Made by a program: the position numbers and the translations under genes
Notes under the pieces: model-generated
The model's input: the letters and a program-made list of their open reading frames with translations, nothing else
Told to the model about the DNA's origin: nothing
Databases searched by the model: none
Source of the DNA: Escherichia phage FL38
Strand: one strand, 5' to 3'
DNA: 64,000 nt
Sequence record: PP400784
Part shown: positions 21,060 through 26,830 of the stretch, one piece after another
How the letters are laid out: each line of letters begins with the position of its first letter
How positions within the stretch are numbered: position 1 is the first letter of the stretch

Positions 21060-21536
21060 TTAATCATGACCGTGATTTGCAATATCCGCTCGCGTCTTAT
21101 CTTTGTGATTTCCTACGTCAAAGACACGATAACCATTTTCACGCAAAACTTTAATCACTTCTGGGTTATCCTCAAAGACTCCGACAACTTCATCTTTATC
21201 AAAGGATTTAATTACCTCTAATTTTATGTGATAGTCTTTACGGGAATCGGTACGGCCTCTCATAAAGATTTTATCAAAACACACCCCGTTAGAAATTAAC
21301 CAATCAATTGTTTCCATGTAAGCATGTGAACTTCGTCCGGTGAGGATGTAAATCAAATGCCCGTTGTCGGAAAGAGCATTAATAACACGAATTACATCGT
21401 AAATGGGGGAATCACCCCCACATGCCTTGTTATATTCGATCCATGACTCGACTTTATCAAGATTTTCAGTTGGCATCTTTGCTAGTCGATGCGTTGGATC
21501 TGTGATCGTAAAATCTAAATCGACAAAATATATCAT
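21060..21536 (-). CDS. HAD-superfamily phosphatase, probable nucleotidase (158 aa)
   Basis: HAD motif I FVDLDFTIT (DxDxT), motif II ILTGR, motif IV FEDNPE. Confidence 0.6.
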   Translation of the reverse strand: MIYFVDLDFTITDPTHRLAKMPTENLDKVESWIEYNKACGGDSPIYDVIRVINALSDNGHLIYILTGRSSHAYMETIDWLISNGVCFDKIFMRGRTDSRKDYHIKLEVIKSFDKDEVVGVFEDNPEVIKVLRENGYRVFDVGNHKDKTRADIANHGHD

Positions 21537-22693
21537 AGATATTTCCCGAATCGGTTGTAGTCATCGTCTGTTAAATCGGTATTAACCTGAGATACCAGAT
21601 ACATAATCTCTACTTCTTGCGCCGCGTTTTGAACTTCGTCAGAGTTCAACCATTTACGCATCCACGGTAACGGATGACGACGAACACTAAACGGGCTTTT
21701 CAGTCCGGCAGCGCGCATACGGGAATCTGCCAGGTATTCTACATAGGTTTTCAGAATTTCCGGTGACAGGTTAGGAATTGCCCCCATTGCGAATAGGTGG
21801 TCTACCCATTCTTTTTCTTGCTCGACAACATCCAGAAAGATTTTCGTTGCTTCGCCTTCAAGTTCTTCCGCAATCTGTTTCCACTCATCACCATCAACCC
21901 CCGTTTGCCATTGACGAATAATGTATTGTGTTCCTTTTAAGTGAAGTTGTTCATCACGCGCAATAAATTTCATGATCTTCGCGTTACCTTCCAGTAAACC
22001 ACGTTCGGCAAAGCTGAAAGTACATGCAAAGGACACATAAAAACGGATTGCTTCCAGTGCATTTACGCAGTGTGCACACAGATAAATCGAAGCCATCAGA
22101 TCTCGTTTTGTATCTTCAAAAAATCTTCTTGCATCATCTAATGCTGTCTGGTCGTCTCGTTCTTCCCAATAGCGGAGATCTTCTTTTGCATTCTCATACT
22201 TACGAATCCAATAAAGAACATCATCATAATATTTCCCGATAGATTCCGCTCGCTTCATGATAGCAGGGTTATCGATGATCTGGTCGAACTCACTAGCCGG
22301 ATCAATGAAACAGTTACGCATAATGTGTGTATAGCTTCGGCTATGAATCGTTTCGCTGAATGTCCATGTTTGCAACCATGTATCGAGAGTTGGATCAGAT
22401 ACAATTGGACCAAATGCTGCGGACGGTGCGCGACCTTGAATAGAATCAAGTAATGTCTGATACTTCAAGTTTTCAGTAAAGAAACGCTTTTCAACGTCAC
22501 CCATATTAAGATATTGAATGCGGTCGGTTGCAAGTGAAATTTCTTCTGGACGCCAGAAAAATGACAATTGCTTTTCGATCAGTTCTTCAAATACTTGATG
22601 ACGCTGAATATCATAGCGAGCGATACCCAACCCACTACCCAGAAACATTGGTTCGTTCATAATATCAACATGTTCGCGGTTAAATACGCTCAT
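21533..22693 (-). CDS. nrdB: Ribonucleotide reductase small subunit (class Ia, beta)
   Basis: 386 aa, uninterrupted; ferritin-like R2 features (FFWRPEEI ... ) and T4 position next to nrdA. Confidence 0.9.
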   Translation of the reverse strand: MSVFNREHVDIMNEPMFLGSGLGIARYDIQRHQVFEELIEKQLSFFWRPEEISLATDRIQYLNMGDVEKRFFTENLKYQTLLDSIQGRAPSAAFGPIVSDPTLDTWLQTWTFSETIHSRSYTHIMRNCFIDPASEFDQIIDNPAIMKRAESIGKYYDDVLYWIRKYENAKEDLRYWEERDDQTALDDARRFFEDTKRDLMASIYLCAHCVNALEAIRFYVSFACTFSFAERGLLEGNAKIMKFIARDEQLHLKGTQYIIRQWQTGVDGDEWKQIAEELEGEATKIFLDVVEQEKEWVDHLFAMGAIPNLSPEILKTYVEYLADSRMRAAGLKSPFSVRRHPLPWMRKWLNSDEVQNAAQEVEIMYLVSQVNTDLTDDDYNRFGKYL

Positions 22694-22708: not shown

Positions 22709-22876
22709 TCACTTTTTAACACAAAAGAACTTAGTATTTCTGTTTATTTCGTTATCCTGTTGCAATTCCTGCACGGCTTCAAAACAGCTTTGATGTGATG
22801 AAAACTCCACGCTGGTAACAGTTCCTTTATTATATGAGCCTACGCTAACGGAAAGCAATAACCATAATGTAGCCAT
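22709..22876 (-). CDS. Small protein (55 aa), tandem paralog 1, hydrophobic N-terminus
   Basis: MATLWLLLSVSVGSYNKGTVTSVEFSSHQSCFEAVQELQQDNEINRNTKFFCVKK; SD AAGGTG; not in ORF track. Confidence 0.55.
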   Translation of the reverse strand: MATLWLLLSVSVGSYNKGTVTSVEFSSHQSCFEAVQELQQDNEINRNTKFFCVKK

Positions 22877-23049
22877 TAGTTCACCTTTTGTTTTTCAACG
22901 CAATATAGATTCATAAAGCGTTTATTGTCTTCGCGGATAATCTCGCGAGCTTTAACGCAATCCTGCTTTGTTGCAAATTCAATGCTTGACATATTTCCGT
23001 AATTATACATTGAATTGCTGATTGCAATCAATAACCATACAGTAGCCAT
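22876..23049 (-). CDS. Small protein (57 aa), tandem paralog 2
   Basis: MATVWLLIAISNSMYNYGNMSSIEFATKQDCVKAREIIREDNKRFMNLYCVEKQKVN; TAATG overlap with paralog 1; SD GAGGTTG. Confidence 0.55.
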   Translation of the reverse strand: MATVWLLIAISNSMYNYGNMSSIEFATKQDCVKAREIIREDNKRFMNLYCVEKQKVN

Positions 23050-23217
23050 TATCCGACAACCTCAAAACATTTATCATCAGGAAGAATCGCCCATTCTACA
23101 CCATATTCATCCTCGACGTAGTAGCAAGTCCCATCATGTCGAGCATCATATTCATCACCAACAACAAAGCTATCAGCTAGTTCAAAAATCTACAGCAACA
23201 CATTTTAATTTGGTCAT
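23049..23217 (-). pseudogene. Small ORF interrupted by a frameshift in an A5/T5 homopolymer (about 56 aa if one T removed)
   Basis: ATG with SD GTGAGGA after promoter gives MTKLKCVAVDF then stop; the +1 frame continues 45 codons and ends in a TAATG overlap with the next gene. Confidence 0.4.
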
Positions 23218-23248
23218 AATAAAATCCTCACTTGTTTTTGATGGTTGT

Positions 23249-23277
23249 ATTATAGCGGGGATTTCTCCCCGCGTCAA
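23249..23277 (-). promoter_or_regulatory. Early promoter cassette
   Basis: TTGACG-17 bp (CGGGGAGAAATCCCCGC)-TATAAT. Confidence 0.65.
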
Positions 23278-23285
23278 CACTTATT

Positions 23286-25529
23286 TTACAGCTTGCAAGA
23301 TGAGCACTCGCTAGCGTCTTCCGTACCATCTGCACCGTCGCGAACGTTCGCATAATACAGGGTTTTCAGACCGTAATATTGAGCAAACAGCATATCATCT
23401 AACACATCAGCAATATCGACTTTACCAGTCTTATAAGTGCTTGGATCGTATGATGTATTGGAACTAATCGCCTGATCCACAAACTTCTGCATGATCGCTG
23501 CCAGTGTCAGATAAGGCTTGTTACCTTTCTTGATCAGTGTCCAAAGCAGGTCAATAACATCAGCATTATTCTCTACGTTCGGAATAACCTGATTAAATTG
23601 CCCTTCTTTCGATCCTTTAACCGATACAATCCCGCGAGGCGGTTCAATACCATTTGTGCTGTTAGACACCTGAGAAGATGACTCACAAGGCATCAGCGCC
23701 GAAAGCGTACTGTTACGAATGCCATATTTTTTCAGGTCTTCGCGCAGTTCTTCCCAATCCATCTCATACACCGGATCAACCAGTTCATCTACTGTCTTTT
23801 TGTACCAGTCGATAGGCAGTTCACCGCGACCATAACGTGTTTCATGCATCAGTTCGCAAGCACCCTTCTCTTTAGCCAGTTGCACACTAGCCTTAATCAG
23901 AGCATATTGCAAGCGTTCAAACGTTTTATGCGTAAACTCGTTAGCATCTTCATATGTGAAGAAATTATCTGCTAGATATGATGCAAAGTTAGTAACACCA
24001 ACACCCAGAGAGCGACGTTTTTTGGCTGTCAGTGCTTGTTCTACAGGATAATCCTGATAATCTAACAGGTTGTCAAGTGCACGCACCATAACCATAGCAA
24101 TGCGTTCTACTTCTTCCATATTTTCGATATCGAAATTACCTAAAACATATGCTGCCAAAGTACATAGGCTAATTTCTGAATCATCACGACCCATCGGTTT
24201 TGTTGGCAGAGCAATTTCACAACACAGGTTAGATTGTTTAATCGGTGCTACATTACGAATAAACGCCCCGTGATTGTTCATGTTGTCTGTGAACGTTGGG
24301 TAGATTCGACCAGTGTTAAAACGTTCAATTGCCACCGCTAAAAACAGGTCTTCGGCTTTAACACGAGTTTTACGAACACTCGGATCTTTTTCCAGTTTTT
24401 CGTAAAGTTGGCGGAAACCTTCCTCGTCTCGGAAGTACAGATCCCACAACAAGCCACCCGCAACATCTGGACTAAACAGAGTAATGTAATCCCGTTTAAG
24501 GAATCGCTCTACCATCAGGTTATTAATCTGTACGCCGTAGTCAAGATGGCGAATGCGGTTATCTTCCACGCCCTTATTGTTCTTTAACACAATCAGACTT
24601 TCAAACTCTAAATGCCACATTGGGTAATAGAGTGTCGCTGCCCCGCCACGAATACCGCCTTGTGAGCATGACTTAACGGCAGTCTGAAAATGTTTCCAGA
24701 ATGGGATAACTCCAGTATGACGAACTTCACCATGCCCGATCTTAGATCCTTCCGCGCGAATCATGCCAGCGTTGATACCGATACCAGCACGCTTGCTAAT
24801 ATACTTGATGATTGCATTTGCGGTTTCATTAATACCCTGCAATGAGTCATCACTTTCAATCACCACACACGAACTAAATTGGCGTGTTGGGGTACGCACA
24901 CCTGCCATAATCGGAGTAGGCAGAGAGATTTGCTTATTCGCAACCGCATTATAAAAATCAATCACATGTTCAAGTCGATTTTCTGTCTCTTCTTGATGCA
25001 AGCACATACCGATCAGCATATACGCAAATTGCGGTGTTTCGATGATTTTCTTAGTGCTGCGATCTTGAACAAGATATTTCTCTTTTAACTGCATCGCACC
25101 AGCATAGGTCATTTTAAAATCAAGTTTATGGTCGATGAATTTCTCCAGATATTCCACTTCTTCACGGGAATACTTTTGCAGAATTTCGCGATCATATTTT
25201 CCGGTTGCAATATTACGCTCAATATGGCTGTAAAAATCAATTGGTTGGAATTGACCGTATACTGATTTGCGAAGCGCGAACATTGCAAGGTTACTTGCTA
25301 CATATTGATAATCGGGTGTTTCTACAGTAATGTTATCTGCTGCGACCTTAATCAATACTTTCTGGATATCGTTGGTAGACATACCTTCTGTCAGAAGTGG
25401 TTCAACCATATCAAACAATTCATATGGATCAACGTTATGACCTTCGGCTGCCGCTTCCAGAATTTTCATTACTTTTTCTTTTTCAAAAGGAACAGTCAGA
25501 CCGGAAGACTTAACAACATTTTTAATCAT
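23286..25529 (-). CDS. nrdA: Ribonucleotide reductase large subunit (class Ia, alpha)
   Basis: 747 aa; C-terminal redox tail ECSSCKL; size and position as in T4. Confidence 0.9.
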   Translation of the reverse strand: MIKNVVKSSGLTVPFEKEKVMKILEAAAEGHNVDPYELFDMVEPLLTEGMSTNDIQKVLIKVAADNITVETPDYQYVASNLAMFALRKSVYGQFQPIDFYSHIERNIATGKYDREILQKYSREEVEYLEKFIDHKLDFKMTYAGAMQLKEKYLVQDRSTKKIIETPQFAYMLIGMCLHQEETENRLEHVIDFYNAVANKQISLPTPIMAGVRTPTRQFSSCVVIESDDSLQGINETANAIIKYISKRAGIGINAGMIRAEGSKIGHGEVRHTGVIPFWKHFQTAVKSCSQGGIRGGAATLYYPMWHLEFESLIVLKNNKGVEDNRIRHLDYGVQINNLMVERFLKRDYITLFSPDVAGGLLWDLYFRDEEGFRQLYEKLEKDPSVRKTRVKAEDLFLAVAIERFNTGRIYPTFTDNMNNHGAFIRNVAPIKQSNLCCEIALPTKPMGRDDSEISLCTLAAYVLGNFDIENMEEVERIAMVMVRALDNLLDYQDYPVEQALTAKKRRSLGVGVTNFASYLADNFFTYEDANEFTHKTFERLQYALIKASVQLAKEKGACELMHETRYGRGELPIDWYKKTVDELVDPVYEMDWEELREDLKKYGIRNSTLSALMPCESSSQVSNSTNGIEPPRGIVSVKGSKEGQFNQVIPNVENNADVIDLLWTLIKKGNKPYLTLAAIMQKFVDQAISSNTSYDPSTYKTGKVDIADVLDDMLFAQYYGLKTLYYANVRDGADGTEDASECSSCKL

Positions 25530-25597: not shown

Positions 25598-26830
25598 TTA
25601 TACTGCCATTTGAGCGGTGATTGCTGGATGGCTTTGATAGTTGTGAATTTTAAAGTCTTTCGGAGTCTTTGTCAATACCTCATCTAAAGATTTAAATTCC
25701 GGCAACTCAATCGTTGGTTTATCAAACGGAACACGGCTTAACTGTTCCATAACTTGATCAAAATGGTTTTTGTAAATGTGAGTATCTCCACCAGAGAAAA
25801 TCAGTTCTCCTACCTCAAGATCACACATTTTCGCTATGATGTGAGTTAACAGCGCATAGCTGGCGACGTTAAAGGGCAAGCCTAAAAAGCTGTCTACGCT
25901 TCTCTGAAACCACATACAAGACAGTTTACCTTCATTGACGTAGAATTGCACGAAAGGATGACATACACCCAATACAGCATTATGTGTTCCTTGTACGTTC
26001 CATGAGTCAATAATGATCCGGCGATCCGTTGGATTGTTTTTAATTTGTTCAATCACGTTTTGTAACTGGTCTTCCCAAATCTTCGGGCGATAGACATATT
26101 CTTCATCGTCTTTAGTGCTCGATGTGTCTACGTCCATACTAGCAAAGATCGTGGTATCTGGTGCTAAAATATCCCCACCCAGATAATCACTATCAAGCAG
26201 ATAACCGAAATAACCATCATCTACCCATTCCTGGAATCCCCACAAGCAATATGCATCATTAACAAAATTAGATTGAGTCTTCCAGTGGTCTGCTACTAAG
26301 AATAGATTATACTCAGAATCAAACTCTTCATAACGCATACCACGCCAGATAGCACATAAACGGTCTTCTGTTTCATTGGTTGGCGTAAAGTCTTCTACCC
26401 ACGGGTGCTTAAATGTATGTGCATATTTGCTCTTAACGCGCTTAATTTTGATTTCACCGTGTGGATGGATCGGTTTGCGTCGCCATGCCATACCATACAT
26501 ATTGCCGACATTATAACCATTGAATCGCAAAGGATTCTTTTCTTTCATATCAAGGCAGTTGCCGCGCCAAATGTCGAAGGCTTCTTCGTCAAACTTACCG
26601 CGTGTAATTTCCTGTAAGCGACGGCGGTCAAGTGATCCCTCCATAAACCATAGCAACTCGCCAATTACAGAGGCTGTAGCCATCTTTTTAGTGGTCAGTA
26701 ATGGGAAACCCTTGCTTAAATCAATTCGCATCTCTGCGCCGAATTTAGATAGCGTACCTACCCCCGTGCGGTCTTCACGAGGCCAACCATTATCAAGAAC
26801 ATCACGCAACAGTTTCAAATATTCTTTCAT
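25598..26830 (-). CDS. td: Thymidylate synthase with about 125-aa internal insertion
   Basis: Conserved TS blocks DRTGVGT, RRIIIDSWN, CHPFVQFYV, FQRSVDSFLGLPFNVASYALL, SGGDTHIYKNH, C-terminal QMAV; 410 aa vs about 286 in T4. Confidence 0.85.
   Translation of the reverse strand: MKEYLKLLRDVLDNGWPREDRTGVGTLSKFGAEMRIDLSKGFPLLTTKKMATASVIGELLWFMEGSLDRRRLQEITRGKFDEEAFDIWRGNCLDMKEKNPLRFNGYNVGNMYGMAWRRKPIHPHGEIKIKRVKSKYAHTFKHPWVEDFTPTNETEDRLCAIWRGMRYEEFDSEYNLFLVADHWKTQSNFVNDAYCLWGFQEWVDDGYFGYLLDSDYLGGDILAPDTTIFASMDVDTSSTKDDEEYVYRPKIWEDQLQNVIEQIKNNPTDRRIIIDSWNVQGTHNAVLGVCHPFVQFYVNEGKLSCMWFQRSVDSFLGLPFNVASYALLTHIIAKMCDLEVGELIFSGGDTHIYKNHFDQVMEQLSRVPFDKPTIELPEFKSLDEVLTKTPKDFKIHNYQSHPAITAQMAV

Follow-up and report, generated by a model that had tools for sequence, protein, structure and literature searches.

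Two small PHROG 5579 genes in tandem between nrdA and nrdB of Escherichia phage FL38

The genes encoding the large and small subunits of class Ia ribonucleotide reductase in Escherichia phage FL38 (PP400784) are separated by a spacer that contains very short open reading frames. Are these frames genuine genes, what kind of proteins would they encode, and does their location within a ribonucleotide reductase operon tell anything about their function? We addressed these questions in a 64,000-nucleotide stretch of the phage DNA, referred to below as the window.

Gene layout and expression signals

The lengths (55 and 57 aa) and the coordinates originally reported for two ORFs between nrdA and nrdB, here named ORF-A and ORF-B, were verified. 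Both are located on the minus strand, which had been left unstated, and they come third and second in a row of three small ORFs, the first of which had been overlooked. The features of the region are listed below in the order of transcription.

25598-26830, minus strand: td, encoding thymidylate synthase, first in transcription order
23286-25529, minus strand: nrdA, encoding the large subunit of class Ia ribonucleotide reductase, the upstream neighbour
23249-23277, minus strand: sigma-70-like promoter site TTGACG-17 nt-TATAAT, found by consensus scan
23053-23220, minus strand: homolog of RB49p233, a broken small ORF between nrdA and ORF-B
22876-23049, minus strand: ORF-B, encoding a PHROG 5579 protein of 57 aa that is identical to RB49p232
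22874-22878, minus strand: TAATG, in which the stop of ORF-B overlaps the start of ORF-A, read from the sequence; an arrangement of the translational-coupling type
22709-22876, minus strand: ORF-A, encoding a PHROG 5579 protein of 55 aa that is orthologous to RB49p231
21533-22693, minus strand: nrdB, encoding the small subunit of class Ia ribonucleotide reductase, downstream in the same predicted transcription unit

The 801 bases around ORF-A and ORF-B share 99.5% identity with Escherichia phage kaaroe and 97.5% with phage RB49, and all 58 records matching this region (58/58) belong to Krischvirus, i.e. RB49-type phages related to T4, from E. coli and Shigella. Both genes are already known: they are annotated as CDSs in RB49 (NC_005066; RB49p231 and RB49p232), kaaroe and other phages, everywhere among the relatives under the label hypothetical protein. 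ORF-A differs from RB49p231 in 4 of 55 residues, and ORF-B matches RB49p232 exactly. An ORF cutoff of 60 aa would skip both of these genuine genes, a point of small practical value.

The proposed paralogy of the two ORFs was confirmed by BLASTP (40% identity, E 1e-16, far above chance). They share M1, A2, T3, W5, L6 and L7, the motifs Y15-N16-x-G18 and S22-x-E24-F25, and two cysteines, C31 and either C50 (ORF-B) or C52 (ORF-A). The head-to-tail TAATG overlap (read as cTAATGg) is present as described, and so is a Shine-Dalgarno sequence for each frame: GAGG located 10 nt 5′ of the ORF-B ATG and AAGGTGA located 4 nt 5′ of the ORF-A ATG. ORF-A ends with a TGA stop followed by an in-frame TAG, 15 nt ahead of the nrdB start, and the 15-nt gap contains the nrdB Shine-Dalgarno sequence GAGGTGA.

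Conservation of the pair in related genomes was also observed: of 15 Krischvirus sequences examined, 13 carry both ORFs intact. Pooled pairwise pN/pS among the orthologs from these 15 sequences was 0.06 for ORF-B (9 DNA alleles) and 0.21 for ORF-A (13 DNA alleles). ORF-B, which is 98-100% identical across Krischvirus genomes, is the better-conserved paralog, and ORF-A is the more variable one. These data indicate that ORF-A and ORF-B are real protein-coding paralogs under purifying selection.

The first ORF of the chain corresponds to RB49p233, an acidic protein of 55 aa that is unrelated to the ORF-A/ORF-B family, and its original stop overlaps the ORF-B start, again as TAATG. One extra T in a T-run (near 23184-23188) shifts the reading frame, leading to a stop after 11 codons. 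The same lesion occurs in kaaroe, and in FL20, JEP8 and pEJ01 the homolog is either unannotated or found in a split or truncated form. The frameshift could mark a dispensable gene in decay or a homopolymer sequencing error.

The TTGACG-17 nt-TATAAT sequence begins 9 nt past the nrdA stop, agrees with the consensus at 11 of 12 positions and is identical in RB49 and kaaroe. It is likely an early promoter for the small-ORF chain and nrdB. The whole promoter spacer folds into a perfect hairpin of 7 bp closed by a GAAA loop (GCGGGGA-GAAA-TCCCCGC; predicted at -19 kcal/mol, z = -5.1), so the same bases could serve both as a stem-loop at the 3′ end of nrdA transcripts and as the promoter of the small ORFs and nrdB. 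No T4-type late promoter (TATAAATA) was found near the ORFs, and no terminator-like sites were seen among the small ORFs or from ORF-A to the nrdB start. We infer that the small ORFs are transcribed early, together with nrdB, from the sigma-70-like promoter behind nrdA. The TAATG overlaps suggest coupled translation, which would proceed from the RB49p233 homolog to ORF-B and then ORF-A, with nrdB translated from its own ribosome-binding site. No experimental report on transcription or translation of ORF-A or ORF-B was found in the literature.

Protein family and predicted fold

Both predicted proteins match the phrog_5579 profile over its whole length (positions 1-52 of 52), ORF-A with residues 2-55 (E 1.2e-24) and ORF-B with residues 2-53 (E 6.8e-24), and the annotation of kaaroe assigns pVOG VOG8694 to both genes. 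The RB49 representatives of PHROG 5579/VOG8694, RB49p231 and RB49p232, are the same genes as ORF-A and ORF-B, without difference between the systems. PHROG 5579 has no assigned function, no Pfam model and no solved structure. Scans of both ORFs and 42 relatives against Pfam, NCBIfam and PADLOC returned no significant family, none of 42 family members matched the anti-phage defence models of PADLOC-DB at E <= 1, and a profile search of PDB sequences gave no match below E 0.88. No paper was found in a literature search that covered the gene and protein, DUF1482, the locus tags of RB49 and the identifiers of the family in PHROG and VOG.

When 1.84 billion cluster representatives were searched exhaustively with an HMM, 71 family proteins were identified at E <= 1e-3, nearly all of 50-70 aa; at the 50% identity level the family has at least 71 representatives. 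A word-indexed search recovered close relatives only. Among the distant relatives tested, 39 of 42 match phrog_5579. Family members are carried by both virulent and temperate phages. When distant members were compared with isolate phages by tblastn, Krischvirus only, or nothing, was retrieved. A stringent DNA pattern had no match in IMG/VR; a relaxed one yielded 16 viral loci there, 14 of them true family loci, and 116 loci in bacterial DNA, one of them true. One family member is located in a genome contig of Enterobacter cloacae, where it is probably part of a prophage.

The family signature begins with hydrophobic W-L-L-[IL] and continues with S-x-G-x-Y-N-x-G, then E-(x)-F, a cysteine, a variable helix, and a second cysteine followed by V or I. 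It is present in both ORF-A and ORF-B, the latter having S13 in place of the consensus G13. Across 76 members the column frequencies include W5 (87%), L7 (95%), S11 (82%), G13 (76%), Y15 (74%), N16 (83%), G18 (82%), F25 (96%), C31 (99%) and C51 (97%), and most of the conservation falls within the N-terminal 25 positions.

AlphaFold2 modelling of ORF-A with a 70-sequence alignment gave a pLDDT of 95.4 and a pTM of 0.74 (five models, 94-95), with strands at residues 5-11, 20-25 and 48-54, a helix at 28-39 and a short helix at 42-47. For ORF-B, modelled with 9 sequences, the pLDDT was 81 and the beta-beta-alpha-beta topology was the same. A compact beta1-beta2-alpha-beta3 domain is thus predicted with high confidence, W-L-L-I forming beta1 and Y-N-x-G the beta1-beta2 loop. 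Of the two near-invariant cysteines, the model places one in the helix, at its N-terminal turn, and the other in beta3. Judging by residue periodicity, both should face the helix-sheet core, where the pair is most likely structural or redox-sensitive. Because both faces of strand beta1 are hydrophobic, the protein probably functions in dimeric form or in complex with a partner. According to BFVD, the fold is common to many small uncharacterised phage proteins.

Proteins of the DUF1482/YebW family (PF07358) are enterobacterial, of approximately 63 aa and without a known function, and they resemble ORF-A and ORF-B in size. They also share the order of elements: a hydrophobic N-terminus, a short loop, a strand, and [ST]-x-x-x-C at the helix start, with a second cysteine approximately 14-20 residues after the first, as in the architecture of ORF-A and ORF-B. 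A structural neighbour in BFVD (TM 0.66) bears the label “DUF1482 family protein”. YebW differs, however, in lacking W-L-L and Y-N-x-G, in having a conserved tail, FIDGFWRPA, at the C-terminus as well as two additional cysteines, and in being chromosomal rather than phage-borne. Alignment of the family with the DUF1482 profile by hhalign had a probability of 30.8% (E 5e-4) over only 20 columns, which cover the strand-helix-Cys segment, where a match was expected. PF07358 did not hit ORF-A or ORF-B at E <= 10, only one of 42 members reached E 0.11, and comparison of a single sequence with the family profile gave no match. Although the architecture is alike, homology with DUF1482/YebW is not claimed on the basis of a 31% hhalign probability over 20 columns.

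A widespread family with a confident predicted fold and an invariant cysteine pair, lacking a Pfam model and a solved structure, deserves the attention of specialists. The confident fold, with no function or Pfam model attached to it, makes the family a reasonable target for small-protein screens (toxicity, anti-defence activity, interaction partners).

Duplication history and the variable nrdA-nrdB slot

ORF-A and ORF-B are the only family copies in the window. In a sister lineage (contig L007; NrdA 84% identical) the nrdA-nrdB slot contains a single copy, P0018, approximately equidistant from ORF-A and ORF-B. The gene is single-copy in the other phage lineages sampled too, apart from weak second copies in contigs L012 and L046. 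Since the sister lineage and the other sampled lineages are mostly single-copy, the tandem pair arose in the Krischvirus lineage, to which this duplication is confined. In view of the weak second copies, which lie near the first (L046, 8984-9163 and 9423-9605; L012, 1671-1853 and 6182-6358; E 1e-4, 6e-6), this small gene has been duplicated more than once.

In FL20 (L016, 1501-1668) and G37-3 (L017, 1501-1668), the upstream flank and the first four codons of ORF-B are joined to the rest of ORF-A. The junction of the hybrid is located exactly at the 11-mer TATGGTTATTG, which is common to both genes, and one unit of 174 bp is deleted. The tandem pair can collapse by crossover within the shared TATGGTTATTG, and ORF-B is dispensable in these two phages despite its higher conservation. 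One phage genus thereby offers a case of a tandem duplicate gained and lost via 11-nt microhomology.

Two aberrant copies were also recorded. The ORF-B of JEP8 (L023, 801-974) has Cys31 replaced by Phe, at a position that is 99% Cys family-wide, and the metagenomic P0017 is a B/A hybrid of 44 aa without the helix and the first cysteine. These may be defective alleles or assembly errors.

The location of the two ORFs had been regarded as unexpected. This view does not hold, as the nrdA-nrdB spacer of T4-type phages is already known for its variable content: in T4 it is occupied by the homing endonuclease gene mobE and by nrdB.1, where translation is likewise coupled to the upstream gene through an overlap (PMC2988022). 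T4 mobE encodes a mobile HNH endonuclease, whereas ORF-A and ORF-B contain no nuclease motifs and are unrelated to it in sequence; the family HMM had no match in the T4 nrd region at E < 0.7.

Comparison of the spacer across relatives, suggested as a check in the original prediction, revealed that the small ORFs recur and that the slot is polymorphic for mobile genes in Krischvirus. At the ORF-A/nrdB junction, an HNH endonuclease gene is inserted in each of G5211, G2494 and G37-3; the insert of phiS at this place is annotated as a homing endonuclease gene. In Delraymugoa a DNA methyltransferase gene separates nrdA from the first small ORF. The inserts in the Krischvirus loci have the following coordinates.

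L018: 1852-2391
L021: 1152-1691
L017 (G37-3): 1679-2218
L024: 1211-1771
L003: 1686-2525

Possible roles of the encoded proteins

The explanation that we favour, with moderate confidence, is that ORF-A and ORF-B are translated tandem duplicates, each specifying a soluble cytoplasmic PHROG 5579 protein of approximately 55 aa that functions as a partner-binding early factor. Most likely each is a soluble early protein, probably dimeric. Such proteins would bind and modulate a host or phage protein, and would not be enzymes, membrane proteins or reductase subunits. The idea of binding to a host or phage protein is derived from size, fold and analogy, and a small early protein-binding accessory factor is our best guess. 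The analogy is with the Dmd antitoxin (T4-type), the uracil-DNA glycosylase inhibitor p56 of phi29 and some anti-CRISPR proteins, which are likewise of 50-70 aa and composed of a sheet and one helix. These inhibitors are early proteins that act by target binding, often as dimers, as is supposed for the ORF-A and ORF-B products. Weak structural matches were obtained with 5i8j, 2le2, 4l5n, AcrIC8 and AcrIIC3.

Could the two frames have no function at all, being chance frames or decaying remnants in a recombination hot spot near homing-endonuclease targets? The slot varies greatly, with HNH and methyltransferase inserts and a frameshifted p233 among its variants, ORF-B can be lost, and both the C31F replacement in one genome and the truncated hybrid P0017 would suit such an idea. 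It is nevertheless extremely improbable and already contradicted by the conservation data: purifying selection is strong, the pair is intact in all of the 15 Krischvirus sequences but FL20 and G37-3, which retain one hybrid copy, and the at least 71 diverged family representatives keep the motifs. The ribosome-binding sites are good, and the fold prediction, which depends on co-variation in the alignment, is very confident.

The hydrophobic N-terminal stretch had been taken as a sign of membrane insertion or secretion. Membrane helices typically have Kyte-Doolittle values of approximately 1.6 and extend over at least about 17-19 residues. The best 19-residue windows reach 0.81 in ORF-A and 0.61 in ORF-B, the family median is 0.96 with only 2 of 75 members attaining 1.6, and the hydrophobic stretch comprises only about 8-10 residues. 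Membrane insertion of the ORF-A and ORF-B products is rejected. Secretion is considered unlikely. A cleaved signal peptide is normally the least conserved part of a protein, whereas here the N-terminus is the best-conserved segment of the family, with W5, L7, S11, G13, Y15, N16 and G18 conserved above the rest. Residues 5-11 form a core strand of the single sheet in all five models (pLDDT approximately 90). A positive n-region is also missing: K or R precedes the hydrophobic core in 13 of 75 members and in neither ORF, and D or E is found there just as often (13/75). In a Sec-type signal peptide the h-region would span about 10-15 residues and be followed by an A-x-A-like cleavage site, against the 8-10 hydrophobic residues seen here. 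Insertion and secretion are both unsupported because the segment is conserved, too short, devoid of a positive n-region and modelled as a core strand. The case clearly illustrates that a hydrophobic N-terminus in a tiny protein can be a buried beta strand instead of a signal or membrane segment.

Export was kept as a rival on account of two features, the cysteine pair, which is invariant, and S-x-G or S-x-S as a possible cleavage motif. It would involve a short signal peptide cut at approximately residue 13 and a periplasmic peptide of about 41 aa with a Cys-Cys disulfide, which would act, for example, in superinfection exclusion or envelope modification. Two near-invariant cysteines (99% and 97%) are unusual in a small cytoplasmic protein, and a periplasmic disulfide would be a more natural fit. 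The hydrophobic N-terminus is followed by small residues (S11-x-G13 or S13), and automated annotation labels a BFVD structural neighbour “putative secreted protein” and some DUF1482 proteins of similar architecture “secreted protein”. However, only 11-15 residues precede the putative cleavage site, and removal of the first strand would leave a two-stranded parallel sheet. Together with the conservation, charge and hydropathy data given above, this makes export unlikely.

The remaining rival takes the location literally: ORF-A and ORF-B would be accessory factors of ribonucleotide reductase or dNTP synthesis, serving, for example, as a dithiol/disulfide redox relay or as an assembly or regulatory subunit on NrdA/NrdB. 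In its favour are the site between nrdA and nrdB, the predicted co-transcription with nrdB, and the cysteine at the N-terminal turn of the helix, a placement that can lower a thiol pKa. Similar neighbourhoods recur in several unrelated lytic phages. A family member is situated one gene upstream of class I reductase genes in L004 and L005 (NrdA 24-28% identical to that of the window), two genes past nrdA-HNH-nrdB in L013, directly upstream of nrdB in L029, between the ThyA and DHFR genes and near a class II-like reductase and glutaredoxin in L012, and near a dCMP deaminase gene in L015. In total, a reductase gene was found within approximately 2 kb in about 6 of about 18 family contexts sampled, a proximity that a purely generic role leaves unexplained.

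Against a reductase-specific role, no reductase gene is present in the DNA examined around the members in L006 and L010 (sugar-biosynthesis clusters) or L011 and L027 (small-ORF clusters), and no reductase, thymidylate synthase or DHFR was detected at the IMG/VR family loci outside Krischvirus (n=10, from five to six lineages). The neighbours sampled at 4 of these 10 loci were Ead/Ea22, ParB-HTH, ERF recombinase, Gp157, NusG-like protein and DNA methylase, which mark early regions of temperate, lambdoid-type phages; the temperate-type IMG/VR contigs carrying family members in the early region are approximately 44 kb long. The cysteines are 19-21 residues apart, with no CxxC, and the predicted fold is built of three strands plus a single main helix. 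Searches of Pfam, NCBIfam and PDB sequences gave no match to thioredoxin, glutaredoxin, NrdH, NrdI or ferredoxin. FL20 and G37-3 lack ORF-B and yet retain nrdA and nrdB, and the equivalent slot of T4 is occupied by unrelated genes. In lytic phages, moreover, genes for nucleotide metabolism are grouped with small early ORFs in one module, so that proximity is partly expected. We consider a role as reductase accessory distinctly unlikely; the link is better explained by the shared early DNA-metabolism module of lytic phages than by a reductase-specific function. Since contexts without a reductase were sampled, the family is best described as a general early-region accessory gene.

Reductase association was also considered as a defining property of the family, and was rejected, being missing from the sugar-gene, small-ORF and temperate-type contexts. 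A bolder variant, in our judgement highly unlikely, would make PHROG 5579 a new class of small effectors with a reactive cysteine pair, in which an A:B heterodimer tunes deoxynucleotide supply. Its target would be the phage or host ribonucleotide reductase, or a host defence enzyme that depletes dNTPs. If true, it would explain why family members are repeatedly sited by genes for class I/II reductase, thymidylate synthase, DHFR and dCMP deaminase in unrelated lytic phages.

Two further observations concern the neighbouring genes. The td gene of the window encodes a protein of 410 aa, to which ThyA of an unrelated phage aligns at residues 4-74 and 254-399 only; alignment in two blocks suggests that Td contains a central insertion of approximately 180 aa. 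In the sister-lineage contig L007, Td has 412 aa. In the same contig (L007, 2753-5940), nrdA is split into two ORFs by a gene with a faint match to I-HmuI/NUMOD-like homing endonucleases, an arrangement resembling the mobE-split nrdA of Aeromonas phage Aeh1 (PMC2988022).
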